A stretch of DNA of 64,000 bases from Escherichia phage 172-1. The first letter of the stretch is position 1. Each line of letters begins with the position of its first letter. The notes beneath the pieces were generated by a model. The model saw only the letters and a program-made list of their open reading frames with translations. It was not told the origin of the DNA and ran no database searches. Below are positions 18,549 through 56,188 of this stretch, one piece after another. A program made the position numbers and the translations under genes. The DNA is taken from sequence record NC_028903.1; one strand, written 5' to 3'.

Positions 18549-18580
18549 AAGACCTATACAAGCTAGTGTGTAATGTATAT
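18549..18580 (+). promoter_or_regulatory. phage middle/late promoter (AAGACCTA-N14-TAATGTATAT)
   Basis: Core at 18571-18580, 33 nt upstream of ATG 18613. Confidence 0.55.
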
Positions 18581-18612
18581 TCTTTGTCTACATATAACAA
18601 GGAGGACAACCT

Positions 18613-19365
18613 ATGGCGATGCCAGAAGTGCAAAACCCGATTAACACGTATGGCTGGCTTAAGAAAGCTGTTGCCTTGTGGGCCGATCGAGACGATGATG
18701 AATTTGTTAATCAAATTCCAAACTTTATTAACTTTGCAGAGAAAGAGATTTATCGTAACTTACGTATCCCTCCTCTGGAAAAAGAAGTGTATTTAGATAT
18801 TAAAGATGGAGTAGCTTACATTCCTCCTGATTACTTAGAAGCTCAGTGGATGATGAGAGCCAAAGATGGTACAATCTTCCAAGTAACGTCTCCTGAAGAG
18901 ATTAGCTATCGTAGACAGCATGGAACAATTAACCCATCTCATTGGAATAACCAACCTGTTAACTTTGCTCGTTTCGGTAGTCGTTTCATTTTCTATCCTA
19001 GCATCGAAGCAGATACTCCTGTTTATCCTGATGATGGAAGCCCTTTGATTCCAGCAGAAAACTCAGTAATTCTCAGTTATTATGCAGACCCACCGGAATT
19101 CCATGAAGATACAGACACTAGTGCTATCCTTACTATTGCACCAGAACTTCTTCTATATTTCACTCTACGTCATGCTTGCTTGTTTGTTCAAGATGATAAT
19201 GGAGTTCAGAAATGGTCTGCATTAGGAAAAGCTATCCTTGATGAAATGGTAGAGCAGAATAAGAAACAAGAGTACTCAGGTTCACCTATCGCAATTCCGA
19301 ATAACATGACTCGGCTTCAGAGCAGCTTGCCTGACATTTATGGTATTCGTACTTCTCGTGTATAA
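18613..19365 (+). CDS. virion structural protein (possible head-tail adaptor)
   Basis: 250 aa, own promoter and RBS; between capsid and tail fibre genes. Confidence 0.4.
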   Translation: MAMPEVQNPINTYGWLKKAVALWADRDDDEFVNQIPNFINFAEKEIYRNLRIPPLEKEVYLDIKDGVAYIPPDYLEAQWMMRAKDGTIFQVTSPEEISYRRQHGTINPSHWNNQPVNFARFGSRFIFYPSIEADTPVYPDDGSPLIPAENSVILSYYADPPEFHEDTDTSAILTIAPELLLYFTLRHACLFVQDDNGVQKWSALGKAILDEMVEQNKKQEYSGSPIAIPNNMTRLQSSLPDIYGIRTSRV

Positions 19366-19374
19366 GGAGATAAT

Positions 19375-21933
19375 ATGATCGTTTATAATAACCAAGCACC
19401 TGATGCAGTGAATAACGTTGGGCAGTTTGGTGCTACTGAAGGCTCTATCGGAGCTTACAAGCAAGCAGCAGAATACGCAGCTGACTCCAAATATTGGGCA
19501 CTGCTAGCGGAATCTAAGTTTGGTACAATTGATGACTTGATCGCTGAAGTAGAACGTCTGTATCAACAAGGTGTTCTGATGAAGCAGGATATTGAAGATC
19601 TTAAACAAGATTTTAAAGATCAAGATGCTCGTCTTATGACCTTGATTGCCCAGACTAACGCAGCTGTTTCTGATGCGAATAACGCTGTTGCTTTAATCAA
19701 TCAGAAACTTATTGAAGTCCAGAATCAGCTTGACGTTCTGTTAGGAATGTCCGTTGATGTAACCACACTTCCTCCGGGAACTCCGGCTACTGGTTCTTTT
19801 AATCCTAACACTGGTGTAATCTCTCTAGGTATCCCAGAAGGCGAACCCGGAAAGGATGGTTCTGTTAAGGATTTAGACACAGCTCCTACTGGTGTTCCAG
19901 AGCTAGGTGATTTAGGTTTCTATGTTGACAAAGATGACAATACCGTCCACAAAACTACTCTAGATAACATTGCTAACTTAATCCCATCTGTTCGTTCTGT
20001 CTCTATTAACGGCGGTCCAGCTCTTGATGGAGAGGTTGCTCTAACACTTAACAAAGAGACGGTAGGTTTAGGAAATGTTCTGAACGTCGCTCAGTACAGT
20101 CGTCAAGAGATTAATGACAAATTTGACAAGACTACCAAGACATACCAATCAAAAGCAGAAGCTGATGCTGATGCTCAGTATCGTCAAGTAGGTGAGAAAG
20201 TTTTAGTTTGGGAAGCTACTAAGTATGAATTCTATACTGTTGCTGCTAACAAAACACTGACTCCTGTTAAAACTGAAGGTAGAATTCTTACCGTTAACTC
20301 TCGCTCTCCAGACTCAAGCGGTAATATCGATATCACGATTCCAACAGGTAACCCGTCTTTGTATCTTGGTGAAATGGTAATGTTCCCTTACGACCCATCT
20401 AAGAATATCTCCTACCCAGGAGTTCTTCCTGCTGATGGTCGTCTGGTATCAAAAGAATCTGCTCTCGACTTAGGCCCATCTCTTGTCAGTGGTCAGCTTC
20501 CTGTAGTCTCTGAAACTGAATGGCAAGCAGGGTCTAAACAATATTTCTCATGGGGTAAGCTAGCAGATGGGATTACTGATGCGGATTCTACTAATTTCAT
20601 CAATATTCGACTTCCTGATTGGACTGGAGGGGAGGCAATAAGAGCACCAGATTCTGATAAAGATTCTCAATACAATGGGTCTGTACAGGCTCAGAAACCT
20701 TATGTTGTCACGGTAAATAACCAAGCTCCTGATGAGATTACAGGGAACGTAACCCTCTCCAGATCTATCTTGGGAGCAGCTTCTTCTGGTGCAAACTCTG
20801 ATATAACATCCCTGACAGGACTCACTACAGCTCTCTCTATCGCTCAAGGTGGTACAGGAGGGAAAACTCCATCTGAAGCTAGGGCAAACCTAAATCTTGA
20901 AAGATTTCAACAAGACAACTCGCAGACTTTGATATATTCTCCTGATTATGCCCGTCGTGTTTATGTTGACAACACTGGTGGTTCTTGGGGGTGCCAGAAC
21001 GTAACAGATGGCGGTTTTATTGCTCTTGGTATTCCTCAAGGGGGTACAGGAGCTAAGGATGCTGCTGGTGCACGAAGTAATCTCGGTTTGGGTTCAGTGT
21101 CCACACTAAACAATATACCCGTAGCTAATGGAGGTACTGGAGCAACTACTGCTGCTGGTGCTCGTTCCAACTTAGGTCTTGGGAGTGTTTCTACTCTGGA
21201 TAATGTACCTATTGCTAATGGTGGGACAGGGGCAGCTGATGCTGCTGGTGCAAGGTTTAATATTGGAGCACTAAGTAGCACCCCAGCAAATACAGGTGTT
21301 GGTGGTACTGGTAATCGCGTCCAACATGCATCCGGGAATGGCCTGTTTACTTTAGACATGTTTAACTGCTACTGGTATATGCAGCCAGAGGATACTAACT
21401 TCTGGGTTGCCCACAGTGTATCATATGCAGGATCTGGTGGCGAAGCCTCTGGATACGGTCGTATAACTTACGCAATAAAGATTGCAGATGGAACAACAAA
21501 ATATGTCCATTGTCTTACAAACAAAAATACTATTACCGATGTAAGCGGTTTTATCAAAGCGGCATCTCCGGTAGTTAATATTTACGCCAACGGTCGATAT
21601 GAGACGAACGATGAATCTGAGGGGGTCAATGTCATTCGGCAAGGTGTCGGTGAGTATTTGATTACCGGTTGCCTAGGCTTAAACGCAGATGCAAAATGGG
21701 GAGGTATCGACGGCGGCTTTGAAATCCCTATTGACCGCAACAAACAGCCTAGGGTTTGGCTTGATTATGAGGTTAAAGAAGATGGTTCTATTTTAGTCAA
21801 GACCTATCACAGAACCCATTCAACATCCCCAGTTTTTGCTAGAAACGAGTTGGAAGGTTTTTCTGACGGTGACCCAATCGATATCCCTGCCGATGCTTTC
21901 GTATCAGTTCGTGTTGAAATGCCTTCTAATTAA
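19375..21933 (+). CDS. tail fibre protein with phage-fibre repeats
   Basis: 852 aa; repeated GGTGAxxAAGARSNLGLGS motifs typical of phage tail-fibre repeats. Confidence 0.75.
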   Translation: MIVYNNQAPDAVNNVGQFGATEGSIGAYKQAAEYAADSKYWALLAESKFGTIDDLIAEVERLYQQGVLMKQDIEDLKQDFKDQDARLMTLIAQTNAAVSDANNAVALINQKLIEVQNQLDVLLGMSVDVTTLPPGTPATGSFNPNTGVISLGIPEGEPGKDGSVKDLDTAPTGVPELGDLGFYVDKDDNTVHKTTLDNIANLIPSVRSVSINGGPALDGEVALTLNKETVGLGNVLNVAQYSRQEINDKFDKTTKTYQSKAEADADAQYRQVGEKVLVWEATKYEFYTVAANKTLTPVKTEGRILTVNSRSPDSSGNIDITIPTGNPSLYLGEMVMFPYDPSKNISYPGVLPADGRLVSKESALDLGPSLVSGQLPVVSETEWQAGSKQYFSWGKLADGITDADSTNFINIRLPDWTGGEAIRAPDSDKDSQYNGSVQAQKPYVVTVNNQAPDEITGNVTLSRSILGAASSGANSDITSLTGLTTALSIAQGGTGGKTPSEARANLNLERFQQDNSQTLIYSPDYARRVYVDNTGGSWGCQNVTDGGFIALGIPQGGTGAKDAAGARSNLGLGSVSTLNNIPVANGGTGATTAAGARSNLGLGSVSTLDNVPIANGGTGAADAAGARFNIGALSSTPANTGVGGTGNRVQHASGNGLFTLDMFNCYWYMQPEDTNFWVAHSVSYAGSGGEASGYGRITYAIKIADGTTKYVHCLTNKNTITDVSGFIKAASPVVNIYANGRYETNDESEGVNVIRQGVGEYLITGCLGLNADAKWGGIDGGFEIPIDRNKQPRVWLDYEVKEDGSILVKTYHRTHSTSPVFARNELEGFSDGDPIDIPADAFVSVRVEMPSN
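21042..21266 (+). repeat. intragenic ~90 bp tandem repeat (2.5 copies) in tail fibre gene
   Basis: Repeated DNA units encoding the fibre-repeat peptide. Confidence 0.6.
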
Positions 21934-21942
21934 TTTAACAAC

Positions 21943-21961
21943 GCTCCCTTCGGGGAGCTTT
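21943..21961 (+). terminator. rho-independent terminator
   Basis: GCTCCC-ttcg-GGGAGC hairpin followed by TTT. Confidence 0.5.
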
Positions 21962-29868: not shown

Positions 29869-30903
29869 ATGGCGTATGGAATATGGACAAGACCGGTCGG
29901 TCCGGGGCCAGCAGCACCTGCTGATATTTACATTGACAGTGGTAGCACATTCCCTCAGTTAAGAAACAGGGTCAGTGGTAATTTTTCTTTTAATGGTAAC
30001 ACATGTGATCTACCTATAAGCGGTTGGGATGGAAGTGGTCAGATAGTTGTAGTCCCAACAGGGTCTGTTGTTTGGGAGAGATACATACCTCCTAATGTAA
30101 CATCTGATGTGTATTGGCTAACGGATATATCTGTTATTAATAACTCAACCTTCAGAGTTACTATGGATTATAATGTAAACGGTTGGGTATTTGATATGGC
30201 TTTTAATGTATATCAAATATGGCCTAGAGCTAACAGGAACTATGGAATCACATTCTCCAACTCTGCTGACTATTTCTCAATCTCTGATTCTGGAGTTGTT
30301 GGTCAATGTATTTGGGCTTGGGAGGGTGACATAAATGGTGCTCTTCAAATACCAGATATTGGTGGTTTTGATATGAGCCGAGCAACTGTCTACGCGAATT
30401 GGAGTAACGGCGGAGCAGGTCTGCTATACAACCCATCCAATAGGGTTGTTTATGTGTACCAGAACAGGTCTCATGATAATGGTAACACAAACCAAACAGG
30501 GTACATTGGTGGTGTTAGGATTGCCGTCTTCTGTGATGGTTCGGGAGTACCAACCCACAATGGAGGTTTAAATATCTTTTCTCCAAATGGGTCTCAGTGT
30601 GTTTTTTCTACATATAGAACCCCTTTTAGTGTTGAGGGGTTTATGCCTATGAGTGGTGGTAACACATCTTTGGCCTATCCAATGATACCTCTATCTTATG
30701 GTGCTGGAGCAATAAGAGGTAAGGCTAGTGGTTGGTATTTTCAACACACAAGATCTCACATGATGAATGGCTCTTCTTTTGGTACAGGTTTCGGAAGGAT
30801 GATTTACTCTTGGAGTAGTCAATATGATTTAGGAGGGGGTGGTGCCCTCGGGTTAAGTATTCCAATATTAGATGCTAGAAAGATATTCAGGAGTATACAA
30901 TAA
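29869..30903 (+). CDS. tail-associated protein
   Basis: 344 aa; Gly/Ser/Asn-rich beta-type composition. Confidence 0.45.
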   Translation: MAYGIWTRPVGPGPAAPADIYIDSGSTFPQLRNRVSGNFSFNGNTCDLPISGWDGSGQIVVVPTGSVVWERYIPPNVTSDVYWLTDISVINNSTFRVTMDYNVNGWVFDMAFNVYQIWPRANRNYGITFSNSADYFSISDSGVVGQCIWAWEGDINGALQIPDIGGFDMSRATVYANWSNGGAGLLYNPSNRVVYVYQNRSHDNGNTNQTGYIGGVRIAVFCDGSGVPTHNGGLNIFSPNGSQCVFSTYRTPFSVEGFMPMSGGNTSLAYPMIPLSYGAGAIRGKASGWYFQHTRSHMMNGSSFGTGFGRMIYSWSSQYDLGGGGALGLSIPILDARKIFRSIQ

Positions 30904-33761: not shown

Positions 33762-35417
33762 ATGCAACAGACAACTTACGCTCAGGTCAGAAGTCGTGAC
33801 CCGAGAAATACTTTCTATGGTGTTAATCCGGGAGCGGCTTCGGCCTCTCCTTATATGGCTAGACCTACTCAGACAGCGGATGTTTCTATGTACCAGCGTC
33901 CTGCTGTACCTTCATCTCTCGCAGGTCTTGTCTCTCAGGCAGAAGAAGATCAGAATGCTATGGTGAATCCGGGATTCCAGCAACGTCTTATGGAACAACA
34001 GAATCAAGGAACCCCAACAAGTCTTCAGGGTATTGACATTGGAGCACCAGCCCCTGTAGCAGCTAATCCTAATTTATCTACTGATCAAGGTTTGCAGGAT
34101 GCTGGACTTATGCCTAGTGACCCTCTTCCGGTGACACCTCCTGCCAAGCCACTAGAAACTGGTCCTATGGAGTTTACTCCTTCTCAGGTTGAACAAGCAC
34201 AAGGTGTTGTTAATACTCTTGCTCAAGGACAAGACACCGGTGACGGAATGGCTGCTGCTACTCGTACTAAAGATCAAGAGCGTGTTAACAATGATATCTT
34301 GCAAGTTGCAAAAGCTAAAGATCCTTCAGAAGCTTGGAAGAAGTTACAGAAAGAACCTTTCTATCAGAACTCTAGTTTCTATACAGGTTTAATGGGTGTA
34401 GGTCTTTCTATCATGTCAGGTAAATCTCCTATCGAAGCATTCCAGATTGGTCAGGGGATGGCTAATCAAGATGAGACTAAAAAGCAACTGGAAGCTAACC
34501 GTGATGCTCTGATTGAACAAGGTTTCTCTCAAGACTCAATTGCAGCTGCTATAGCTCAGGGTGATCCTTCTCTTCTGAAGATGAAAGCTAAAGACCCTCT
34601 TCAACAGGAAGCTCTGTATGCTGCTCGTGAAGAACGTCAGAATGCTGAATGGGATAGACGTCAACAGATTCAAGAGCAGTCTATGCGTGAACGTGCTGAG
34701 GAAACTCGTCGTGCTGCTGAAAAGAGAACTGACATGAACTTTGAACGTCAGAAAGAGTTGATTGGTTATCGTGATAAAGTTAAGGCTGAACGTGCTGAAC
34801 AAGTTGCTCAGAGTTTTAACTTCCCCACGAAAGAAATTCGTAACGCTCAGAATACAGCTGAAGGTACAATTGCTAAGCAGTGGGCAGAGAAAGGTGGCCT
34901 GTTTAACCAGTCTAACAAAGACTTGGATTTGGCTGATAAAGCTGTTAAGGACAAGGATTACCAGACGGCCCGTTCTGCTTACATGCAGGCTATCATGAAC
35001 TCCGCAAGGGCTGAAATCGGCTCTACTCGTTCTCTTACTGAAGAAGACTTGGGACATTTTGCAGAAGACCCATCAATCTTTATCCGTGTAGGTAACAAGT
35101 TCGCTCTGAAGTCTGGGTGGCGTCCTACTGATTCTGCTCTTGCTTATGCTCGTAAACAGGCTAACGTCGGTCATACCTCTGCTATGAAAGGTGTTGCTGA
35201 TGCTAAGAGAGATACTATCAACGCTTATGTTGGTTCTGGTATGGATAAGAAGAGAGCTACTGCATTGGTTAACCGTGCAATTCCTTCTGGCGGTTTCTAT
35301 GACCCTCTCGGTGTTTTCTCTGATGAAGCAGAAGATTATGTTGGTGGTGCAGCAACCAACCCTAAACTGAACGGTGCTTTATCAGCTGTCGAAGACACTA
35401 GCTGGTTCACGCAATAA
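33762..35417 (+). CDS. virion-associated protein
   Basis: 551 aa; position between internal proteins and large virion protein. Confidence 0.45.
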   Translation: MQQTTYAQVRSRDPRNTFYGVNPGAASASPYMARPTQTADVSMYQRPAVPSSLAGLVSQAEEDQNAMVNPGFQQRLMEQQNQGTPTSLQGIDIGAPAPVAANPNLSTDQGLQDAGLMPSDPLPVTPPAKPLETGPMEFTPSQVEQAQGVVNTLAQGQDTGDGMAAATRTKDQERVNNDILQVAKAKDPSEAWKKLQKEPFYQNSSFYTGLMGVGLSIMSGKSPIEAFQIGQGMANQDETKKQLEANRDALIEQGFSQDSIAAAIAQGDPSLLKMKAKDPLQQEALYAAREERQNAEWDRRQQIQEQSMRERAEETRRAAEKRTDMNFERQKELIGYRDKVKAERAEQVAQSFNFPTKEIRNAQNTAEGTIAKQWAEKGGLFNQSNKDLDLADKAVKDKDYQTARSAYMQAIMNSARAEIGSTRSLTEEDLGHFAEDPSIFIRVGNKFALKSGWRPTDSALAYARKQANVGHTSAMKGVADAKRDTINAYVGSGMDKKRATALVNRAIPSGGFYDPLGVFSDEAEDYVGGAATNPKLNGALSAVEDTSWFTQ

Positions 35418-35448
35418 GACCTAAGTCCTGCCTTCTATAATGTATATA
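35416..35448 (+). promoter_or_regulatory. phage middle/late promoter (AAGACCTA-N14-TAATGTATATA)
   Basis: Same bipartite arrangement and spacing as 18549..18580; 36 nt upstream of ATG 35485. Confidence 0.55.
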
Positions 35449-35484: not shown

Positions 35485-38400
35485 ATGGCTAACATTAAAC
35501 CGTGGGAAGAAGCTTCCAAAGCTCCTGCGTATCTGAATGCCTCTCCGGAGCAGCAAGCTCAAATGAGAGAACAATATAAGGCAGCAGGTGGCTCTATTCC
35601 TGAGGAACAGCCAGTAGCACAACCACAACAAGAAGAACGTGGTGTTATAGGTGAGTTTGCTCAAGGTGTGTCAAATGCTCTTCAATCTGGTGGTGCAAAT
35701 ATTGCAGCTAGTGCTGCTAAAGGTATTGGTGGTTTAGTTGAGATTGGTGAGAATCTAGCTGGAGCACAAACTAGTTATGGAAAGCGTATCCAAGAGAACT
35801 CTCAGAACCTTCTGAAAGAACGTATGGATAAGATTGAGGATGGGATTGGTAAAACTGCTGGGCAATATGCTGGCGTTGTTGGTGATATTGGTTTGACTGT
35901 TGCTAACCCATTAGCTGCCGCTGCTATCATTGCAGGTCGTGAGACAGGTCGTGCATATGCAGACCAAACTCCTGAAGAGGGAGAAGATAAGTCTGTTCTG
36001 GATGCCGCTCTAGTTGGTGGTGCTAACTATGCAGCTCAGAGAATCCTTCCGGGTGCTGTTGGTACAGCTGAGTCTACACTTGGTCGTATTGGTCAGAACG
36101 TTGCTAGTAACGCAGTGGCTGGTGCTAAAGGTGGTGCTCTTGTAGGTGCTGCTGAAGCTCAGAACAAACATGGTGATGACACAACCTTTGCTAATGTCTT
36201 AGAAGGTGCTATTGAAGAAGGCGCTATGGGTGCTGCATTCGGTGGTGCAGTTGGTGGTGTTCATGGTTTGATTAGTCGTCCAGATTCTACTGTCTTCAAG
36301 AATACTCCAGAGTATGCGAAGACTGATATTGCTGCTGATGATGAACTGATTCGTAGTGCTAAGAATGTTGATGAACTGAAAGAAGCTTATTCTAAAGCTG
36401 AAACTGCTAACGCTGCTTCCGCTCTTAATCTTCTGGATGAGAATGGATTCCGTATTACTGATGCTGTTGCTGTAGACTCTCCTGCTGCTCAGCGTATTCT
36501 TAATACAGACCAAGCTCGTGCTGAGAAAGCTGCTTCTGCTCAGAAAGAGCATTCTAACATTCCAGGACTCAATCCTTTGGCTTCTCCTGCTAAGGTTCGT
36601 GGTAAAGCATTCGCTGATAATGAGCACAATCAGAAGCAAGCTGTCGCTATGAAAGATGCAATGGCTGACTACACCAAGGATAACACGAAAGCTCTTACAG
36701 ATGTTCTAGATAACCTAGACCGTGAATTAACTTCTCTTAGAGCATCTGGACACTTCACCGGTAGTCCACTTGACGTTAAGAATCGCACACAAGCTGACCG
36801 TGATTTCATTGATGCTTACAAGACTTTCTACAACGAGGCGAATCGATTCAAAGCTCGTGATGGTGAAGACTTTAATAACTTTGTAGAGAAAGCTGCTGAG
36901 CTACAGAAGATGGCTGATAACGTTTCTCCAGAGATGAAGAAAGCTATTGGCGGGTTGAAGAAACTGAAAGGTATGCCTGAAGGTTTTAATCCCATTCAAG
37001 ATGCCTACACTCTGAACAATACAGCTAAATTCATGAGCAACCAAGACCGTGGTTGGACTTCCCTGACTGATGATGGCTTCCGTGAGACTTCTTCTCCTAG
37101 TCTGGTTATGAACACCCTTGGTGCTGCTAAGTATGCTATAAACCGCTTCTCTTCTCAGCGTGCTCGCTCTCAACGTGTTAAGCAACAAGAGGCTAACAGT
37201 GAAGCTATCCGCTCTCTGGCTCGTGGTGATTTGGAAGTTGCTCGTGCTAAATCTACTGCTGATGAAGCTCGTGCTAAAATGGAAGAAGAACCAGTTGTTG
37301 ATGACATTAAATTCAAGACGCAAAATGACGTAGAAACCGAACCGGTTCGGGAGCCTTCTTCTAGTACTGTGACGGAAGAAAATCTTCCTTCTTCTGCTCC
37401 TCAAGAATCTCCTCTTACAGCTCGTGATTTAGTTGCGCAAAGACGTGCTATCCGTCAGGCTGAACAGCGTCGTGCTGAAGAAGAGGCAGCTGCTGCTCAA
37501 GAAGCTCCGGTTGAACAGGCTCCACAGGCTGAACCACTCCCTGCTCGTAATCCTTTAGAGGAACGTCGTGCAATGGAACAGCAACGTGCTCAAGAAGAGG
37601 CCGCACAGGCTCCAGAACCAACCGTAGAGGAACCAACAGCCAAAGCTGAGCCATTACCTGCTCGTGCTCCTAAAGCTCCTGAGGAAGCTGTACAGGACGT
37701 TAAACCGGAAAGCGGTATAGAGTACCTAGCTGCTATGTCAAGTACTGCTCGTCAAGTTGCTAGAGATCGTGCAACACGTTTTGCTAAATCCTTATACTCT
37801 AAGGCTGCTAAGGCTAAAGCTACTGCTGAAAACTTCTTAGCTTACAAAGGCGACCCTTTGGAGTTGATGCGTCGTATTCGTCGGGAAGATAATGCTATCA
37901 ACACTGAACGTCATGAAGAGATGGCTCGTAATCAGTTAGCTTCTCAGCAAGGTATTGCTACTGCTAAGAACAACACTGTACGAACTAATTTTGCTGAATG
38001 GGTTAAGGAACGTGGTCTGCCAGAAGACATTGCTACTAAGGCATTACGTGCTGAAGAGAAAGGTTTAGGTGGGAACGTGACTAACTTAGATAGTCTGAAA
38101 CGTCGTGCTGAGAGATTGTATCAGAAGCAGCGTGAGGATGAGTTTGATAGGCTGTACCAAGAAGCTCTGGAAGAGAACAAAGCTTTCGATAAGAAGGATG
38201 CTCCTAAATTGGTTGACCAGAAGAAAGAGCTTCAGTCTGAGATTGATACTTTGATTGATTCAGAACCTTTACGTCCTGCTCAGAAAGATGCTATGCGCAA
38301 GCTGATGAATGATTATGTAGATGGGAAGTTTAAATCTTCAGAGAAGGCTGGTAGAGAAGAGGCTTTGGAAGTTGGTCAGATGAAGGATGTTTGGGATGGG

Positions 38401-42510: not shown

Positions 42511-43794
<1,284 letters not shown>

Positions 43795-44087: not shown

Positions 44088-44834
44088 TTAGAATGGGCTA
44101 TCGTTGTCGTCTTCATAAGTAGAAGCAGGTTCTTTATCAATCGTAGGGATTGAAGGAGTAGCTTCTTTCTGTTCTGTTTCAGAAGCACGAGTAATTTCAC
44201 GACCAGCCAGAGGCATGTTCTTAGCGTCATTAGCTTGAGTAAGCAGGTTGCGCTGGAACGGGAACATCAGTTGATAGGATGCTACGTTCTCATCGGTTTC
44301 TGCATACGGTTCGAAGAATACCAGAGGACTGCGAGCTTCACCAACTGCTGCACGATATTTGGTTGGGATTGGAGAAATGGTTTTGATGGAGTTTTTAACT
44401 TCACCAGCTTTATTAGTGTAAGAGTTAACCAGAATGTTAACAGGCTGACCTAACAGCACATCCTTAAACCAAGACAGATCACCTTTCAGTGCTTGAATGC
44501 TTGGGTCAATCATCTTGCAGAGATCAAGGATACCAGAGTTCTTAGCTCGTGGGTTTACATCATAGCTCTTGAACTGGCAAGCAGGACGTGGTTCTAATGC
44601 CTTACCATCGGAATCTTTACCAGTAGCATCAACACCAATCAGCTCGAAAGCCAAATCCATACGGAAAGCTGGATTCTTAGGAGTTACTGCTTTGGTCTTC
44701 GGGTCAATCCAAGGGTCACGATTGTGAACACCCAAACCTACTACACGAACAATACGTGCTTCGTACTCACCATCAGGGATGACGTCGTAGTTGGATTTAC
44801 GGGAAGAAGTTGCGATAGTTGGAATCATAGACAT
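44088..44834 (-). CDS. T7 gp2.5-like single-stranded DNA-binding protein
   Basis: 248 aa; acidic C-terminal tail ending YEDDNDSPF (terminal Phe as in gp2.5). Confidence 0.55.
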   Translation of the reverse strand: MSMIPTIATSSRKSNYDVIPDGEYEARIVRVVGLGVHNRDPWIDPKTKAVTPKNPAFRMDLAFELIGVDATGKDSDGKALEPRPACQFKSYDVNPRAKNSGILDLCKMIDPSIQALKGDLSWFKDVLLGQPVNILVNSYTNKAGEVKNSIKTISPIPTKYRAAVGEARSPLVFFEPYAETDENVASYQLMFPFQRNLLTQANDAKNMPLAGREITRASETEQKEATPSIPTIDKEPASTYEDDNDSPF

Positions 44835-44893
44835 ATTTTAATTTCCTTATTTAATTTGAAAGATTGTTGCTCTCTTTGAGCGGTTATGTATAG

Positions 44894-44902
44894 TATACAT
44901 TA
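44894..44902 (-). promoter_or_regulatory. phage promoter core TAATGTATA (leftward, upstream of SSB)
   Basis: Read on minus strand ~60 nt upstream of ATG 44834. Confidence 0.45.
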
Positions 44903-44943
44903 CGCTTATACCGATAAGAGTACTATATAATATAAGTATCTTT

Positions 44944-44976
44944 GGTAGTAGATATAACACACTAGTAATGTATATA
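44944..44976 (+). promoter_or_regulatory. phage promoter (GGTAGTAG-N14-TAATGTATATA), rightward into ORF-free AT-rich region
   Basis: Core at 44966-44976; no plus-strand ORF downstream. Confidence 0.45.
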
Positions 44977-45380
44977 TTGTATAGCTGATAAAGTTATTGC
45001 AGGCTTGTATATTGGGCAATTCACAGAATCCCTTGCAAGTACCGAAGGGCAGGAGCCACCTGCGAGATAAAAATAGAGAATTAAGGAATCCTTGATTTAG
45101 GTTGTAGGGACTCCTAGGGACTTTGATTCTCTATTTAAAAGAATATTAATTACTTACTACCTAAATAATTAACTAACTTACTTAAACCAAATTCAAGAAT
45201 GATAGATAAAAAGATTATTCCTAAGAAAGCTAAGAAGTAAAGTATATAAGTTACCATTCAAGTAAACCTTTAAAGTTAGATTGTTCTACTATCCTCTGAT
45301 AACGAAGATTAGAATCAGCTTGTTTCTTTAACATCTCATTATATTTATCTCTGATAGAGTCTTTATAAACTACAGGTTCT

Positions 45381-45881
45381 TTAAATAACGAGATCTTCTT
45401 TTCTTCTTTCATCGAAAACCTTCCTAATCTCTTGCAGAGAAACAGCTTTATAATCAATTTGCTCCATTGATGTACAGAAATATCTCCAATCATCAATTAC
45501 ATGGTTATGTGTATGAGCATAAATATTAAACTTCCCTCTCATTTCATCAGAGTGAATAGGGATATGAGTTACCCAAAACTCTTTATATTTAAAATCACCA
45601 GAGATTCTACGAAAGACTTTCATCATATCAGGGAGAAGTTCTAACCTATCATGATTCCCTAAGACCAGATGCTTCTCTCCTTTTACTTCAGCGATAATAT
45701 CAAGGGCATACTTTTCAAATACCCAATCACCAGTAAAAAAGATTTTATCACGTTTGGTTACGTGGTCAAAAGCAGCTAGAATTGCTTTGTCATGTTCTTC
45801 GATGTTTTTAAATTGCTTACGAAAACTACAGATGTTTCGATGACCTAAGTGACCATCTCCTGCAAAATAAACTTCAGCCAT
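45381..45881 (-). CDS. calcineurin-like metallophosphoesterase
   Basis: 166 aa; GDGHLGH, GDWV, GNHD and HTH metallophosphatase motifs. Confidence 0.65.
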   Translation of the reverse strand: MAEVYFAGDGHLGHRNICSFRKQFKNIEEHDKAILAAFDHVTKRDKIFFTGDWVFEKYALDIIAEVKGEKHLVLGNHDRLELLPDMMKVFRRISGDFKYKEFWVTHIPIHSDEMRGKFNIYAHTHNHVIDDWRYFCTSMEQIDYKAVSLQEIRKVFDERRKEDLVI

Positions 45882-45890
45882 AAAGACCTC

Positions 45891-46373
45891 TTAGATAGTT
45901 AATTTGTGATCTTCCTCCGCTCTGTTTCTAACAGAGACGGCTTCCTCTAGGGTTGAGAAAGTTCCTAGGTATTTAGTTTTACCCTTAATGTGGATATTGG
46001 CTATGTACTTCCCTCTTGAATTGAGGTATACACCCTTAGCCCCTGATGTGTTGTTAGAGTTCAAACCCTTGTTCCAAGAATTATTCTCGTTGTTAACTTC
46101 TCTAAGGTTGCCTATGGAATCATTGGAAGGGTTTCGATCAATGTGATCTATTTGATCTTTAGGTAAAACGCCATTAGCAAAATACCAAATGATGTGGTAT
46201 CTGTAAATGGATCTTCCTTTCACTCGGATAAGTACTCTTCCATCCTTTTTTGAAGTTCCTGCCTCATCGCCCCGCCTGCATTTTGTTCCGTTGTGAATTC
46301 TCCAGAACACTTTTCCAGATGATAAATCACAAACAAAGAACTCATCCAGAAGATCTTCTATCATATCATGCAA
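45891..46373 (-). CDS. HNH homing endonuclease with AP2-like DNA-binding domain
   Basis: 160 aa; DHIDRNPSNDSIGNLREV HNH core and GVYLNSRGKYIANIHIKGKTKYLGTF AP2-like segment. Confidence 0.6.
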   Translation of the reverse strand: MHDMIEDLLDEFFVCDLSSGKVFWRIHNGTKCRRGDEAGTSKKDGRVLIRVKGRSIYRYHIIWYFANGVLPKDQIDHIDRNPSNDSIGNLREVNNENNSWNKGLNSNNTSGAKGVYLNSRGKYIANIHIKGKTKYLGTFSTLEEAVSVRNRAEEDHKLTI

Positions 46374-46874
46374 CCATCACATACGAAATCCCCGCTCAGA
46401 GATTCTTGTAACAAACGACTTTGTTCATCGGAGACTAATTGATTAACAACTTTCTGTAACTCCAGCAGTTGATCAAAATCTATATATCCCCCTTCTTCAA
46501 GGACATTGGTTTCAATTCCCCATAAAGGTGATGGCATGTTTCCACTTGCTTTAAAAATCATTATATCTCCTTAGCTCCAAGATTTAGCTTTTACTTCAAC
46601 GTAGGTTTTAACCTCACCTTTCAGTACTTCCTGAGAAGCATTTGCACTTTCTTCAGAGGTGTGCACAACGGTGATCTCTTTCTTTCCAATCTTATAAGTG
46701 TGAACCCAAATCATTCCTCTTCCTCGTATTCCCAATTTCTTTCATAATATCCAGAGTTGTAGTTTAGGGCGCATTTCTCAGCCTCTTCTATGTCATCGGT
46801 ATTTAGGATATTAACCCATCCACCAACTTCATCAAAACCTTCATCTACTTCATTAAACCATACACTGTACTTTT

Positions 46875-50774: not shown

Positions 50775-50775
50775 A

Positions 50776-51095: not shown

Positions 51096-51419
51096 TTACG
51101 ATGAGCTTAAAGCTCCTTTTCGCTTAGCAGCACCAGCTGCTTTTCCAGCTCGATTACCACTTTTGCCGCCGTTTGAACGGTTTGAGCTGACTGATTCAAC
51201 ACGTAAGTTGCTTGACGCATTAGAGCCTCCAGACTTGACAGCTCGTTTGTGTCCAACATCTTTACCTCTGACAGCAGCTTTTCCATCGCGCTTTTCAACG
51301 ATGCGACGTGCACGGTGGCGCTGAGCATCTCCGCTCTTGCTCCCAACGCCTGTCTCACCACGGGCAATTGCGGTACGTCTTTCTTGTGCATAATCTCTCT
51401 TTCCTACATGATCTGCCAT
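51096..51419 (-). CDS. basic low-complexity protein (possibly nucleic-acid binding)
   Basis: 107 aa, R/K/G/A-rich; own promoter and AAGGAG RBS. Confidence 0.4.
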   Translation of the reverse strand: MADHVGKRDYAQERRTAIARGETGVGSKSGDAQRHRARRIVEKRDGKAAVRGKDVGHKRAVKSGGSNASSNLRVESVSSNRSNGGKSGNRAGKAAGAAKRKGALSSS

Positions 51420-51455: not shown

Positions 51456-51466
51456 TATACATTATA
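51456..51466 (-). promoter_or_regulatory. phage promoter core TATAATGTATA (leftward)
   Basis: 37 nt upstream of ATG 51419. Confidence 0.5.
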
Positions 51467-51475
51467 AGTTGCTGT

Positions 51476-52213
51476 TTAAGCTTTCTTTTCCATTGCTTTA
51501 ACAATAGCTTTACAGAAACCAGAACGAACAATGTCATCTGATTCGCCGTCTACAATCTCAGCGAACTCATACAGATCATGTTCATCAATAAAGTTAGTAG
51601 CCCAAGTAAGACCACTCTCACGACCACGCATATCATGCTGGTTAGTGTCACCCATGCAGAACAATTGAGAGGTTTCTCCCAATCGAGTCATGATTGAGAA
51701 GGCTTCATCTTTAGTGGTGTTCTGGAACTCATCTACGATAACAATAGCATCGTTGAAAGAACGACCACGGAGATACTCCAGAGGTACGAACTCAATATTA
51801 CTGTTACCGAGCTGGCATTCATAGAACCCTTTACCATATCGCTGAGTAATAACATCAATGATAGGCATCAAATATGGTTCAAACTTCTCACGCATCCCTC
51901 CCGGAAGCAACCCAAGAGAATTACCCATGCCGACCGAAGGGCGACTCAGGATAATCTTCTGAATCTTACCACTCTTCAGTGCATCGATAACCGTGGAAGT
52001 GATTACAAAGGTCTTACCACAGCCCGCAGGAGCGTCTGTGAACACAACTTGTTTAGTCTTGATAGCATTGAGCAGTTCAGACTGGAACTGGTTCTGAGGG
52101 ACTACAGGCTTTGCTAAAACCACCTCTTCAAACTCGCGCTTACCCTTACGAGTGACAAGTACTTCCCGACGAAGGTCTTTCCGTGATTCTTTCCGTGATT
52201 GACGACGACTCAT
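51476..52213 (-). CDS. phoH: PhoH-like ATPase
   Basis: 245 aa; Walker A PAGCGKTF, IVDEFQN, and GDTNQ motifs. Confidence 0.8.
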   Translation of the reverse strand: MSRRQSRKESRKDLRREVLVTRKGKREFEEVVLAKPVVPQNQFQSELLNAIKTKQVVFTDAPAGCGKTFVITSTVIDALKSGKIQKIILSRPSVGMGNSLGLLPGGMREKFEPYLMPIIDVITQRYGKGFYECQLGNSNIEFVPLEYLRGRSFNDAIVIVDEFQNTTKDEAFSIMTRLGETSQLFCMGDTNQHDMRGRESGLTWATNFIDEHDLYEFAEIVDGESDDIVRSGFCKAIVKAMEKKA

Positions 52214-52912: not shown

Positions 52913-53157
52913 TTCACAACCTTAAATTTGAATGTTGTTGGGTGATAATAATGCAACCTGTTAATGGTGTGCTTTGTTTCAAGATATATCCTACAAGAGT
53001 GACACATCACATGATTCAGACCAGTTACAGGATTAGGTTTAAAGTTGGCGATAGGCTTCTCTTTCTTACAGAAGCTACAGACTTTCTTTTCCATCTTTTC
53101 TCCAGTGGTCAACGAACTGCTGAAACACTTTACGGTCAAATGTGAAATTACGAGCAA
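52909..53157 (-). CDS. zinc-ribbon protein
   Basis: 82 aa; CSFC...CHSC pairs. Confidence 0.35.
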   Translation of the reverse strand: MLVISHLTVKCFSSSLTTGEKMEKKVCSFCKKEKPIANFKPNPVTGLNHVMCHSCRIYLETKHTINRLHYYHPTTFKFKVVK

Positions 53158-53454
53158 TTCCGCATTCTCTAAAAGTGGCAGGCATATAATCTACATCACC
53201 TTCAGATGTATGACCATAGACTTGAATAAGTTTCTTAATCTTATCCTTCTCTCTTCGAGGAAGCATTCTAAATGCCTCCTGAATATCTGTAATATGTTTT
53301 ATCTTCATCAGAAATTCCTGCTAATCCTCTGAGTTGTGGGAACAGCAATATTCACATACTCCACAACAAGGGCAAATTTCTACACTTGGGTCATATGCAT
53401 CATCAACTGTCATCCCACACTTGGTGCAGAACACATCATCATCTTCTTCCAATA

Positions 53455-54111
53455 TTAATTCTCCAAAGTTTTCTTCAGAGCTGCCCACGAGATTGGGTAG
53501 AGTTTAGCCATCTCTTCATCCAGAGATTGAGCAAACACTCGAACTTCATACTGAGCATGGGAGGATAGTCGCTGACGACACAACTCAAACCAGCCATACA
53601 AAGAACCAGTCCACACCCACTCAGTGATCATTCCCTGAGGAAGAACAAATCGGGCTTGTTCTGGTGCAACGAACTCAATCAACTTGTCATATGCTGCTAG
53701 AGAAGCTTCATATGCATCGTTAATCAACATTAATGCTTCAGCTCGCTCTCCATTGATGAGTTGAACCCCTGAACCTGCATGGAGGTCCGAAGGTCTCGCA
53801 AAAATCTCTTTAGGGATGAAGACTTCAACTGCTCCGTCTTTATACCTCCGGGACATTTCGTTCCACGAAAACCCAATTTGGTGCTTGCCCAACTGTCTCG
53901 CAATTGCGATAGGTGCTTTGCATCGGAAACTGACTTGTGGGTGTCGGAATGGAGTAACATGCTTCTCTCTTGCGAGGAAGTTGATGAGACGTTCATCACG
54001 TTCATTTAAATCACCTTCACGGGTTACGCCAAAGGAAACTCGAGCTGCGTTTACTACGCTACGATCACTTCCCATAGCTTCGATTAATGTTGCTTGTAAT
54101 TGTTCATTCAT
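53455..54111 (-). CDS. thyX: flavin-dependent thymidylate synthase ThyX homolog (variant active-site motif)
   Basis: 218 aa; recalled ThyX-like core (VVNAARVSFG, HVTPFRH, KAPIAIARQ, SHAQ); RHR-x7-S motif replaced by KHQ-x8-S. Confidence 0.7.
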   Translation of the reverse strand: MNEQLQATLIEAMGSDRSVVNAARVSFGVTREGDLNERDERLINFLAREKHVTPFRHPQVSFRCKAPIAIARQLGKHQIGFSWNEMSRRYKDGAVEVFIPKEIFARPSDLHAGSGVQLINGERAEALMLINDAYEASLAAYDKLIEFVAPEQARFVLPQGMITEWVWTGSLYGWFELCRQRLSSHAQYEVRVFAQSLDEEMAKLYPISWAALKKTLEN

Positions 54112-54126
54112 CCGTGAATTTCCTTA

Positions 54127-54336
54127 TTAATATTCTTTTACATAATAAACCACTAAGGTTCCCATCTCTGACAATGTTGATTTATGTAAGCTTACTTTAC
54201 TATAAATCTTTGGGGCCATCTTAAGAGCCTTCTTAAAACGGCGAGCATCTTTACGAGTAGCAAAGTGCTCTGTAACAGGTATAGCCGGGTCTTGGTAGAG
54301 GTAATATACCACCGTCCAATATTTTTTCATAATCAA
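54127..54336 (-). CDS. small protein, TRxxAR/YY paralog family (member 4)
   Basis: 69 aa; ATRKDARRFKKALK core and C-terminal YY-type ending. Confidence 0.45.
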   Translation of the reverse strand: MIMKKYWTVVYYLYQDPAIPVTEHFATRKDARRFKKALKMAPKIYSKVSLHKSTLSEMGTLVVYYVKEY

Positions 54337-54605
54337 ACACCTAGGGCAGTAGTTAAGAATGCTTTCAGGTTTGCTTCGGTCTGCATACCAGAGAGACTAT
54401 AGTGTGCACCACTATTACGGTCAGGTACAACGAAAGCAGGGATGCTTCTTACACCATACTTAACAGCTTGTTCACGACCATCACCTTCAAGGATGTTAAT
54501 CTCTTCTACTTCTACATCGAACTCCTTAACAACCTTCTCAAAGGTAGGAGCCATTGCTTTACATGGAGCACACTGATCACTATAAAACTTAATCACTTTA
54601 GACAT
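54333..54605 (-). CDS. thioredoxin/glutaredoxin-like protein
   Basis: Start at ATG 54603-54605 (MSKVIKFYSDQCAPCK...); CxxC active site. Confidence 0.55.
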   Translation of the reverse strand: MSKVIKFYSDQCAPCKAMAPTFEKVVKEFDVEVEEINILEGDGREQAVKYGVRSIPAFVVPDRNSGAHYSLSGMQTEANLKAFLTTALGV

Positions 54606-54795
54606 TCTATTCCTTGTTAATAAACAGGTTGATATGACGTTGGGTAGCAGGAACAACAATAAAAGATTTATACTGACCTTTTGCTAAGTCATGAGCAATC
54701 TTCTTTGTCTGACCAAGACCCATCACACAGCCACTAACAATAATGGCGTGTGCTTGCAACTCTTCAGGGAGTTTTAGTTTCATTCTTCAGGTTCC

Positions 54796-54981
54796 TTACA
54801 GCATAGCAAGAATGATAATAAGAGGTAATGTTATAGCGAAATTAATAAGAACAGCGCTGCCTAGCTTGATAGCTTTAACATCCTCTTCTGATGGGTTTTC
54901 TTTAATTGCTAAATTTCGAGCTTTATATATAACAGTACCAATTATTAACGACCACACGGCCCACACAATCAGTGAAATCAT
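54796..54981 (-). CDS. small two-TM membrane protein
   Basis: 61 aa; two hydrophobic helices. Confidence 0.4.
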   Translation of the reverse strand: MISLIVWAVWSLIIGTVIYKARNLAIKENPSEEDVKAIKLGSAVLINFAITLPLIIILAML

Positions 54982-54990
54982 ATCAAACCC

Positions 54991-55170
54991 TTATGCAGTC
55001 AGGAGGTGAAGCAGGAATGGGATAACAACAGCTACGACAACCATGATGGTTGATGCTGTTTGAATCTCACCTTTCTTGTCAGGAGTTTCTTCAATAAGCT
55101 TGCCAGAAGCCCAATAGATACCACCACCAATAAAGACAGCCCAAATACCCCATACGATTGCTGATAACAT
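54991..55170 (-). CDS. small two-TM membrane protein (paralog of 54796..54981; not in ORF track)
   Basis: 59 aa ORF found by hand (MLSAIVWGIWAVFIGGGIYWASGKLIEETPDKK...); same architecture as neighbour. Confidence 0.35.
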   Translation of the reverse strand: MLSAIVWGIWAVFIGGGIYWASGKLIEETPDKKGEIQTASTIMVVVAVVIPFLLHLLTA

Positions 55171-55231
55171 ATATCTATATCCTTATAAATAAGTTCGCCC
55201 CACCTCGGGTTAGGAGACAGGGCGGAGGTTT

Positions 55232-55795
55232 TTAGTAAGACACATCGCCACTTGAGTGGGACATGTTGCTCTTGACGAAGTAGCAATACTTGCCAAGACC
55301 TTCATTAATTTCTTGAAGCATACTCTGATCAACTGGATAAGTGGCTAAATCACCATCAAACTCATCCATCTTCTCAATAATACACATCAAGGTCATGCAC
55401 ATATCAGAGAGCATACCGTCCATATCTAGGTCAGCATTACCCTCTGAGAACCAAGCATGGGAGAGATAATTGGCTGCTGTGGCGTCCACTTTAACACAGT
55501 GGTAACGCATACGTTCAGCAATACGATCTCCTACTTGTCGTGCGTAATCTTCCAGCTCATCAAACATACCATGAACACCCTGAAATCCTGCACCAGAGAC
55601 GTTCCAATGGTAGTTTTTAGCTTTGATATGCAAGAGTTCCATGTTAGCTTGTAAGCAGCTCAGGATGTGTTCTAGGCTGTTTCCACTAATCATACCCTGC
55701 ATTGTTTCAAGGCGAGAGATTGAAAGCTCGGACCGGTCTAACATATTGTATTCGACACGACCAATATCAGGTAAATCAAAGACATTCTTATGCAT
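55232..55795 (-). CDS. dps: Dps-like ferritin (DNA-binding ferritin-like protein)
   Basis: Start at ATG 55793-55795 with GGAGAT RBS; NYHWNVSGAGFQGVH (H-x11-H) and GDRIAE (D-x3-E) match recalled Dps ferroxidase-centre spacing. Confidence 0.6.
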   Translation of the reverse strand: MHKNVFDLPDIGRVEYNMLDRSELSISRLETMQGMISGNSLEHILSCLQANMELLHIKAKNYHWNVSGAGFQGVHGMFDELEDYARQVGDRIAERMRYHCVKVDATAANYLSHAWFSEGNADLDMDGMLSDMCMTLMCIIEKMDEFDGDLATYPVDQSMLQEINEGLGKYCYFVKSNMSHSSGDVSY

Positions 55796-56117
55796 TTGGG
55801 TTATCTCCATCAAGTTCAACTGAATTAGCAACGTTACGTTCGATGTTTGCCATCACTTGCTGCGTTATGACAATACAGTTCTGTGGGTCTACTGACTTAG
55901 AACGCCCCATTTCAGGGTCATACACCTTAACTCGCTTAGCAGTTGAACCTGTAACCTGAAGAACCTTCAACAGATATCCCTGATTACCAATAGACCAAGC
56001 AACAACATCACGATTCTTGATAAAGCGACCAAGCATATCACGATGATAAAACTGTTGCATCACCTTGGATTTTGTAATCTCTTCAGTGGGCGGGGCCACT
56101 TTACTCAAATCTAACAT
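55788..56117 (-). CDS. hypothetical protein
   Basis: 109 aa; preceded by promoter motif. Confidence 0.45.
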   Translation of the reverse strand: MLDLSKVAPPTEEITKSKVMQQFYHRDMLGRFIKNRDVVAWSIGNQGYLLKVLQVTGSTAKRVKVYDPEMGRSKSVDPQNCIVITQQVMANIERNVANSVELDGDNPNA

Positions 56118-56155
56118 AACTCTCTCCTGTAAAAATACAAATTCTTATTGTACTC

Positions 56156-56188
56156 TATATACATTTGAGAGTTACCATATCTACTACC
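56156..56188 (-). promoter_or_regulatory. phage promoter (GGTAGTAG-N14-AAATGTATATA, leftward)
   Basis: Same upstream octamer and spacing as 44944..44976; 39 nt upstream of ATG 56117. Confidence 0.5.

Follow-up and report, generated by a model that had tools for sequence, protein, structure and literature searches.

The sigma factor and the promoter-like sites of the window

The window analysed here (64,000 nucleotides of Escherichia phage 172-1, record NC_028903.1) comes from a phiEco32-like coliphage (Kuravirus) with approximately 91-97% identity to phiEco32 and NJ01. It is collinear with phiEco32 (80-97% identity), and each published phiEco32 promoter site has an orthologous counterpart in it. 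The features considered are the following, where Pnc denotes the additional site at 44966(+):

11030..11060, plus strand: P6 orthologue; box GGGAGGCT, 14-bp spacer, core TAATGTAGA
18549..18579, plus strand: P13 orthologue (late); box AAGACCTA, 14-bp spacer, core TAATGTATA
35416..35446, plus strand: P26 orthologue (late); box AAGACCTA, 14-bp spacer, core TAATGTATA
42890..43534, minus strand: phage sigma factor, gp36 orthologue, 214 aa; 212/214 identical to phiEco32 gp36
44894..44924, minus strand: P40 orthologue (middle); box AGTACTCT, 14-bp spacer, core TAATGTATA
44944..44974, plus strand: Pnc, divergent from P40; box GGTAGTAG (the same as in P68), 14-bp spacer, core TAATGTATA
44981..45141, plus strand: conserved non-coding region of about 160 nt; 5' hairpin, swappable middle module, invariant 3' module
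51456..51486, minus strand: P58 orthologue (middle); box AGAAAGCT, 14-bp spacer, core TAATGTATA
56158..56188, minus strand: P68 orthologue (middle); box GGTAGTAG, 14-bp spacer, core AAATGTATA
62139..62387, minus strand: gp79 orthologue, 82 aa; 81/82 identical to phiEco32 gp79
18571+, 30204+, 35438+, 44966+, 44902-, 51464-: exact copies of TAATGTATA (exact scan, both strands)

An earlier reading made from the sequence only had placed an ECF-like phage sigma factor at 42890-43534, and the open reading frame is there (minus strand, 214 aa). Its product matches chain F of PDB entry 9M7Y (E = 6e-145), is assigned to PHROG 1740 (sigma factor) and retains all DNA-contact residues (E79, H80, Y83, R84, W90, S91, S94, N95, Y186 and R187). 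The description of this factor as ECF-like had to be given up: in Pfam, Sigma70_r2 reached 19.1 bits against a cut-off of 24, and region 4 had no match, which does not qualify the protein as an ECF (group 4) factor. "ECF" is the depositor's annotation label, and the accurate term is a distant sigma70-family homologue; the published gp36 structure contains sigma2-like and sigma4-like folds, with deviations (PMC12276001).

The same reading had linked the core, correctly, to the sigma-dependent middle/late promoters of phiEco32-like phages, as tAATGTAtA is the published consensus of gp36 holoenzyme promoters (PMC8948821, PMC4331800, PMC4281155, PMC12276001). The TAATGTATA promoter class is thus already known, and the phage sigma gp36 recognises it in phiEco32-like coliphages. 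The six gp36-dependent promoters that citing papers list for phiEco32 precede genes 6, 13, 26, 40, 58 and 68 (gene 6 appears as a gp36 promoter site both in PMC4331800 and in SU10 Table S2), and the start site lies 6-8 bp downstream of the consensus. In the window, the orthologue of each of these six genes is preceded by a co-oriented site. The class core is present as five exact TAATGTATA sites together with AAATGTATA (P68) and TAATGTAGA (P6), the latter two departing from the consensus solely at its two lower-case positions.

Exact TAATGTATA occurs six times on both strands of the window against 0.71 +/- 0.83 expected, an 8-fold enrichment, and 0 of 100 dinucleotide shuffles attained six copies. 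All six sites that had been listed earlier are present, although the one at 56158-56166(-) is AAATGTATA, one mismatch from the core; since one-mismatch variants are found at chance level (22 observed, 20.9 expected), the 56166(-) site is credible from its context alone. The list overlooked an exact copy at 30204(+), within a tail/membrane-protein gene, which is probably a chance occurrence, and it has no entry for the orthologue of the published promoter P6 (TAATGTAGA at 11052(+)), a position outside the range that it covered. The stated distance of about 33-60 nt between core and start codon holds for five sites (motif end to ATG 33, 38, 59, 36 and 40 nt), while the sixth, 44966(+), is followed by neither a start codon nor a conserved ORF. 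The bipartite pattern RRNA-N18-WAATGTAKA matches exactly seven sites (0.30 expected), excluding the intragenic 30204 copy, in a test that is circular because the pattern was built from the sites it later recovered.

Considered one by one, the sites are placed as follows. The P6 sequence is identical to that of phiEco32 at 1677, its box is the 3' arm of an intrinsic terminator, and the predicted +1 (11067) is followed just 5 nt further by the gene-6 ATG at 11072. P13 lies immediately 3' of the terminator at 18518-18539, with the predicted +1 at G 18586 and the ATG of a virion structural protein at 18613, and the P26 box overlaps the gene 25 stop codon (predicted +1 at G 35453, ATG at 35485). 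On the minus strand, the predicted +1 is A 44887 for P40 (ATG at 44834), A 51449 for P58 (ATG at 51419) and A 56151 for P68 (ATG at 56117). With Pnc included, the predicted +1 is a purine in 7/7 cases, and five leaders carry a Shine-Dalgarno sequence.

The motif sites are kept at orthologous positions in all relatives checked and are oriented toward operons on both strands. A non-promoter reading, in which TAATGTATA recurs by chance or through base composition or is bound by a different DNA-binding protein, could draw on the 30204(+) copy and on the chance frequency of one-mismatch variants; in view of the enrichment of the exact motif, its correct orientation before operons and its conservation, its probability is close to nil, and the published phiEco32 biochemistry and structure effectively refute it. 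We regard the motifs, with high confidence, as promoters of the middle and late classes in a phiEco32-like (Kuravirus) coliphage.

Service of these promoters by the phage sigma, as had been proposed, is supported by orthologous promoters and by the near-identity of sigma (212/214) and gp79 (81/82), which allows the mechanism to be carried over from phiEco32 to phage 172-1; sigma dependence in phage 172-1 is thus inferred by orthology from a mechanism that is experimental for the phiEco32 orthologues (primer extension, in vitro transcription and cryo-EM). In phiEco32, gp79 is an inhibitor of the sigma70 holoenzyme and a co-activator of the gp36 holoenzyme (PMC12276001). Following the phiEco32 scheme, early genes would be transcribed by the host sigma70 holoenzyme, and middle-gene products would include gp36 and gp79, the latter displacing sigma70 region 4 from the core enzyme, which would then be bound by gp36. 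The gp36 N-terminal domain would read AATGTA (-14..-9), melting DNA from -11, its C-terminal domain would contact the -37/-34 region, and transcription would start 6-8 nt past the 9-mer. P6, P13 and P26 would in this way serve the late structural genes on the plus strand, and P40, P58 and P68 the middle genes on the minus strand. The practical value lies in correct genome annotation, i.e., middle versus late operons and transcript start positions.

The upstream box at -37 to -30

Both pairs of shared 8-mers noticed earlier were confirmed, exactly 14 bp from the core in each case: AAGACCTA at 18549-18556 and 35416-35423, and GGTAGTAG at 44944-44951 and 56181-56188(-). Two independent, identical and in-register 8-mer pairs among seven sites have a chance of roughly 1e-6 (arithmetic from base composition). 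The shared 8-mers are the -37..-30 region, which is contacted by the gp36 C-terminal domain. In phiEco32, the gp36 holoenzyme transcribes P26 and P68 in vitro, with 4-fold stimulation of P26 by gp79, and mutagenesis covered positions -14..-11, -37 and -34; the cryo-EM open complex (9M7Y) was formed on P68 and has contacts at -37G and -34A, and P68 alone was used to test the requirement for G(-37), by cryo-EM and mutagenesis (PMC12276001).

Among 27 related loci, which gave 18 distinct promoter/box variants, all 18 have A(-34) and all 18 have a purine at -36; apart from these two, no position from -60 to -16 is invariant. In the window, all seven sites have A(-34), and G(-37) is found in three of them, the remaining four (P13, P26, P40 and P58) having A where P68 has the reportedly essential G, which means that the upstream contact is not identical at every promoter. 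At P40, A(-34) is unchanged through seven different box variants. P58 lies in four unrelated upstream contexts among the relatives, with G(-36) and A(-34) alone retained; compared with phiEco32, the P58 upstream context of the window is replaced and R-G-N-A at -37..-34 is kept, whereas the -37..-30 sequences are the same at 6/7 window sites. The alignments suggest that a general upstream element of the form T-R-R-N-A, in which A(-34) is invariant, belongs to this nominally single-element class, and that the late structural promoters P13 and P26 have their own AAGACCTA version of it. The invariance of A(-34) across relatives extends the cryo-EM result beyond one promoter.

It could also be supposed that host sigma70 recognises the sites of the middle type (P68 and Pnc, perhaps also P40 and P58), in part or entirely, and that the phage sigma is not needed there; TTGGTA would then be a weak -35 element, followed after 18 bp by TAATGT or AAATGT as a weak -10. 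The SU10 authors indeed mark the P68 equivalent with a sigma70 -35 (TTGGTA) and -10 and suggest dual recognition, and a consensus scanner gives a 9/12 sigma70-like match overlapping Pnc (44949-44978). However, such matches are no commoner in the region than in shuffled sequence, the hexamers are poor (TAATGT agrees with TATAAT at 3/6 and AAATGT at 2/6 positions) and the spacer is 18 bp. Additionally, gp79 turns off the sigma70 holoenzyme when middle-type genes are expressed, the gp36 holoenzyme transcribes phiEco32 P68 and forms with it the complex whose structure was solved, and the conserved bases, AATGTA and A(-34), are those contacted by gp36, unlike the sigma70 consensus. It seems very improbable, therefore, that host sigma70 accounts for these sites, and recognition by gp36 is the preferred explanation.

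In scans of IMG/VR, the patterns AAGACCTA-N14-TAATGTATA and GGTAGTAK-N14-WAATGTATA were found in five Kuravirus genomes with two sites each per pattern, except in NJ01, which has one AAGACCTA-N14-TAATGTATA site and AATACCTA as its P26 box. A further 7 and approximately 32 contigs matched, numbers close to the chance estimate for 16-17 specified bases and a collection of this size, so no inference was drawn from them. In distant relatives, where sigma is 53% identical and carries H80N and R84Q, the P40 equivalent is GGTACTCT-N14-TAATGGATA. A switch of sigma-motif specificity, with TAATGGATA as the altered core, was considered and dropped, as TAATGTATA is also present in these phages and the sites are too few.

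The site at 44966(+) and the non-coding DNA downstream

Pnc, with its predicted +1 at A 44981, is also present in phiEco32 (36704+) and is missing from the six-promoter lists for that phage as they are given in citing papers. It is conserved in 24/24 of the related loci that cover the region (27 loci compared overall). Among 19 distinct sequences, TGGTAGTA (-38..-31) and TAATGTATATA are invariant, and the spacer and the DNA further upstream vary. The site differs from the rest of the gp36 class in that it precedes no gene: the longest ORF downstream has 32 aa, a TTG start and no conservation, and a coding role was rejected, since the ORFs (21-32 aa, TTG starts) are broken by the module swap in relatives. 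GenBank promoter annotations in the same intergenic region (SU7, 4E8) consist of minus-strand sigma70-type predictions only. Judged by its sequence and conservation, Pnc is most likely a seventh promoter of the gp36 class.

The 5' hairpin of the downstream region, AUAGCU-GAUAA-AGUUAU, begins exactly at the predicted +1 of Pnc, and the hairpin begins there in every variant, including MN05 and SR02, which have a wholly different 7-bp stem. It covaries, with compensatory changes and with G-U pairs that are valid in plus-strand RNA only, and the plus-strand fold of the region is 10 kcal/mol better than the minus-strand fold. The 3' module consists of a GCAGG..CCUGC hairpin and a long AAUAGAGAAU...AUUCUCUAUU hairpin. 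As the approximately 160-nt region is mostly invariant, covariation is informative for the 5' hairpin only, and we do not claim a full secondary structure. Rfam gave no match for the whole window at gathering thresholds, and a permissive search of 44800-45400 gave chance-level matches only (E > 2). The non-coding core is restricted to this lineage in the collections searched: it was found in 97 records of a GenBank phage collection, all Kuravirus-like, and in IMG/VR in five Kuravirus contigs only, while none of the E. coli genomes searched matched it and its exact 23-mer was not found in GTDB genomes.

On the other hand, Pnc may not function as a promoter at all, being a by-product of the inverted repeat that it forms with P40 (TATACATTAC / GTAATGTATA) or of duplicated DNA from upstream of P68, with the downstream DNA acting as a replication origin, a protein-binding site or a leftward terminator of the gene 58-41 operon. 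This would agree with the missing gene and with the site's absence from the six promoters in those citing papers, as well as with the 10-bp perfect inverted repeat shared with P40, the 14 nt in common with P68, the long hairpin followed on the minus strand by UUUUUAU, the TAGGGACT direct repeat (two copies at 10-bp spacing), the 21% GC stretch downstream, and a 160-nt core that is for the most part too invariant to give covariation evidence for RNA structure. Nevertheless, an invariant box and core amid a drifting spacer and flanks is the pattern expected if a gp36 promoter is under selection, and the 5' hairpin placed at the predicted +1 in all variants, its compensatory changes and strand-specific G-U pairs, and the better plus-strand fold all argue against a non-promoter. 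A role at the DNA level is not opposed to promoter function either, as an origin primed by the Pnc transcript fits with it. We thus consider a non-functional Pnc rather unlikely, although its probability is not small.

Promoter function remains the preferred reading for Pnc, and its product would then be a non-coding RNA capped by the 5' hairpin and antisense to the intergenic region on its gene-41 side. To hypothesize further, with slightly less than even confidence, Pnc could be a seventh gp36-dependent promoter, unreported as far as those lists go and common to Kuravirus and Suseptimavirus, which gives a lineage-specific, structured non-coding RNA of at least about 160 nt, protected by its 5' hairpin, in which the invariant 3' module would have a regulatory or antisense function or belong to a transcript priming a replication origin. 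If Pnc fires, Kuraviruses produce a dedicated, so far unstudied, middle-phase non-coding RNA or origin transcript.

The T4 origins oriF and oriG consist of a middle-mode promoter and a downstream unwinding element, and the transcript primes replication. The Pnc region is alike in that a phage middle-type promoter faces a non-coding stretch followed by very AT-rich DNA; by this analogy, an R-loop or origin role might be hypothesized for it.

Comparison with other phage transcription systems

The closest known system is that of the phiEco32 gp36 promoters (Pavlova et al. 2012, J Mol Biol 416:389; Xu et al. 2025, NAR gkaf683), which has the same core, genomic positions, sigma and gp79. The window belongs to a different isolate (about 91-97% DNA identity) and has the extra intragenic copy at 30204. 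The late promoters of phage 7-11, served by SaPh711_gp47 (Lavysh et al. 2022, PMC8948821), resemble those of the window in the use of a phage sigma with the host core enzyme and in equivalent genome positions, and transcription starts there 6-9 bp downstream of the proximal element (PMC8948821). Phage 7-11 differs in its bipartite GTAAtg-N16-aCTA consensus (PMC8948821), in a sigma that is just about 15% identical, with region 4 recognisable, and in having neither gp79 nor a middle class. With T4 AsiA/MotA, the phiEco32 type shares a small phage protein that disables sigma70 region 4 and co-activates a class of phage promoters, and for gp79 the analogy to T4 sigma appropriation was drawn by Xu et al. 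Unlike the phiEco32 type, in which sigma is replaced, T4 retains sigma70 and supplements it with a DNA-binding activator, for which the MotA box lies at -30.

Counterparts of the motif class in phiEco32

The exact 9-mer TAATGTATA is present in six copies when both strands are counted (18571+, 30204+, 35438+, 44966+, 44902- and 51464-), against 0.71 expected, and none of 100 shuffles reached six. In the sequence-only reading, six sites were taken as a promoter class probably served by the phage sigma factor; five of these are exact copies, while the sixth, at 56158-56166 (-), reads AAATGTATA, and since one-mismatch variants as a class are about as common as chance predicts (22 copies, 20.9 expected), this site is credible from its context only. 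Two sites were left out of that list, namely the intragenic exact copy at 30204 and TAATGTAGA at 11052, the latter lying outside the range considered. At five sites the motif ends 33, 38, 59, 36 and 40 nt from the ATG, in agreement with the previous reading, and the two common 8-mers are in exactly the positions read, each 14 bp from the core; the start codon said to follow every site is found at these five, but 44966(+) has neither a start codon nor a conserved ORF downstream.

Six phiEco32 promoters are already known to depend on recognition by a holoenzyme containing the phage sigma factor gp36, with the consensus tAATGTAtA and start sites 6-8 bp downstream (PMC8948821; PMC4281155), located upstream of genes 6, 13, 26, 40, 58 and 68 (PMC4331800; SU10 Table S2). 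Site-by-site comparison with phiEco32 gave the following correspondence.

Table. Window sites, their phiEco32 counterparts and the 8-mer box at -37..-30 (T of the 9-mer = -15)
11052, +, P6 orthologue, core TAATGTAGA, box GGGAGGCT
18571, +, P13 orthologue, box AAGACCTA
35438, +, P26 orthologue, box AAGACCTA
44902, -, P40 orthologue, box AGTACTCT
44966, +, seventh site (Pnc, 44944-44974), box GGTAGTAG
51464, -, P58 orthologue, box AGAAAGCT
56166, -, P68 orthologue, box GGTAGTAG

The predicted +1 is a purine at all sites, and five leaders contain a Shine-Dalgarno sequence. The sigma factor is indeed encoded at 42890-43534 (-), where the ORF is identical to gp36 at 212 of 214 positions and matches chain F of PDB 9M7Y, the open complex structure of Xu et al. 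2025; its earlier description as ECF-like is a label only, as judged by Pfam (Sigma70_r2 sub-threshold, no match for region 4). In 9M7Y the AATGTA element is centred at -11.5, with S91 reading -13, S94 reading -12, N95 reading -14, E79 and H80 reading -11G, and W90 and Y83 stacked at the fork; all of these residues, together with R187 and Y186 of the C-terminal domain, are kept in the window sigma. With core and gp36 the same authors reconstituted transcription at late P26 and middle P68, and found that gp79 stimulates gp36-dependent transcription 3-4-fold; a gp79 orthologue lies at 62139-62387 (-) (81/82 identical). Orthology to these experimentally characterised promoters supports the phage-sigma interpretation, and the class is an already known phenomenon, with the observation itself confirmed after small corrections.

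The SU10 authors suggested that TTGGTA-containing sites are recognised by sigma70. The hexamers here fit sigma70 poorly, its look-alike matches show no enrichment, and sigma70 is shut off by gp79 while these genes are expressed. A chance origin or a non-promoter role of the motif was ruled out by enrichment, orientation, conservation and the published biochemistry.

Several sites have local peculiarities. The copy at 30204-30212 (+) lies within the gene-21 homologue (29869-30903), is missing at the orthologous place in phiEco32, has the box GTTGGGTA with G instead of A at -34, and probably arose by chance, about one such copy being expected in 64 kb. At the P6 orthologue (11021-11072), the predicted start, 11067, falls between the AGGAG Shine-Dalgarno and the gene-6 ATG, 5 nt before the latter, so that predicted transcripts would be nearly leaderless for gene 6; its box coincides with the 3' arm of the intrinsic terminator ahead of it (GCCTCCCTTGGGAGGC plus T-run). 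Another terminator (18518-18539) directly precedes P13. Two of the cores show local symmetry, P40 with a near-inverted copy of the core after it (GTTATGTATA / TATACATTAC, within 44883-44903) and Pnc with a tandem near-copy after it (TAATGTATA-TATTGTATA, within 44966-44983).

The upstream element

In the earlier literature gp36 promoters were regarded as single-element, which was ascribed to the absent region 4. In 9M7Y, R187 of the gp36 C-terminal domain contacts -37G and Y186 the T opposite -34A, and mutation of either -37G or -34A abolished transcription (Xu et al. 2025). Both common 8-mers, AAGACCTA and GGTAGTAG, occupy this contact region, and all seven boxes have a purine at -37, a purine at -36 and A at -34. 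Among relatives (27 loci from IMG/VR and GenBank, yielding 18 distinct promoter/box combinations), A(-34) and purine -36 are present in 18/18, purine -37 in 17/18 and T(-38) in 15/18, with every other position from -60 to -16 varying. The cleanest case is P58, where, because the upstream gene differs among relatives, there are four unrelated upstream contexts with only G(-36) and A(-34) constant. Within the window the pattern RRNA-N18-WAATGTAKA picks out these seven sites and no others (0.30 expected); as it was derived from the same sites, it describes them and does not test them independently.

The comparisons concur with the 2025 structure that gp36 promoters have a weak upstream element. 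G(-37) is no general feature, A being found there at four of the seven, and since the box of late P6 is unlike those of late P13 and P26, box types are not cleanly sorted by temporal class. That comparison extends the -34 contact to the promoters in general is one part of what is new here.

The seventh site and its conserved downstream region

The other part is a probable, unlisted plus-strand promoter and its conserved, putative non-coding product. The 44966(+) copy is also present in phiEco32 (36704+), is absent from the published lists of the six promoters that were consulted, and lies in an intergenic region where GenBank records annotating promoters give minus-strand predictions only. Pnc stands back-to-back with P40 in a 415-bp gap, directed away from gene 40. 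The 24 related loci that span the region yield 19 distinct sequences, in which TGGTAGTA (-38..-31) and TAATGTATATA (-15..-5) are invariant (19/19), and the 10-nt spacer and all upstream sequence vary, which is the footprint predicted for a gp36 promoter. In some relatives (L003, L024 and L025: metagenomic Kuravirus, EcM-vB1 and myPSH1131), about 150 bp with a ACTACCGGAAGGTAGT hairpin is inserted between P40 and Pnc (window ~44905-44945 equivalent); their Pnc box is GGTAGTAT, with a different spacer before the core, and the downstream RNA modules are kept.

Feature downstream of Pnc
44981-45141, +, conserved non-coding region of ~160 nt

In all variants a 6-7-bp hairpin begins exactly at the predicted +1 (44981). 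Covariation is confined to this 5' hairpin: its fifth pair is C-G, U-A or A-U by phage, its second U-A or G-C, and the MN05/SR02 type has a wholly different 7-bp stem. The middle module exists in two unrelated versions among relatives (GGCTTGTATATTGGGCAAT... vs CGGGACTGACGACGATAAGG...), followed by an invariant segment of ~100 nt with two hairpins, GCAGG..CCUGC and the long AAUAGAGAAU..AUUCUCUAUU, the latter holding the direct repeat TAGGGACT-CC-TAGGGACT; the segment ends near 45137, beyond which sequences diverge into 21%-GC DNA. The remainder of the region never varies, and therefore says nothing on structure.

G-U pairs in several 5' hairpin variants would be mismatched in the opposite strand, and folding gave -45.8 kcal/mol (z -2.4) for the plus strand vs -35.3 kcal/mol (z -1.5) for the minus strand. 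Pnc is probably a working promoter of the gp36 type, from which a non-coding RNA protected by its 5' hairpin would be made. Such an RNA could be antisense or regulatory, or could, by analogy with T4 origins, be a primer for a transcription-activated origin. Alternatively, the conserved stretch may function at the DNA level or may terminate leftward transcription. The region had no match in Rfam and no similarity to E. coli genomes, and across GenBank phages, IMG/VR and GTDB it was found only in Kuravirus-like phages (Kuravirus and Suseptimavirus genomes).

Near and distant relatives

In three metagenomic IMG/VR contigs (3300013307_000002, 3300013023_000001 and 3300031419_000013; L008, L009 and L010), the gp36 homologue is only 53% identical, with the DNA-contact substitutions H80N and R84Q, but it retains S91/S94/N95 and Y186/R187. 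Upstream of the gene-40 homologue these contigs have GGTACTCT-N14-TAATGGATA (GGAACTGT...AAATGGATA in L010), so box and 14-bp spacing persist where the core changed at -10; the data are too few to claim co-evolution of sigma and core.

A probe of 4 kb that included the sigma gene and its surroundings matched 99 GenBank phage records, nearly all Escherichia/Shigella Kuravirus-like podoviruses, with PH444 and NJ01 as best matches (96-97%). By local megablast the window is collinear with the full phiEco32 record (NC_010324), mostly at 91-97% identity, and circularly permuted (phiEco32 position 1 = window 9502). About 1.2 kb (45402-46577) has no megablast match in phiEco32 and holds two minus-strand ORFs, 45381-45881 (166 aa) and 45891-46373 (160 aa); as relatives carry an annotated serine/threonine phosphatase or phosphoesterase at this place, it is a variable cassette, situated shortly beyond the downstream end of the non-coding region.
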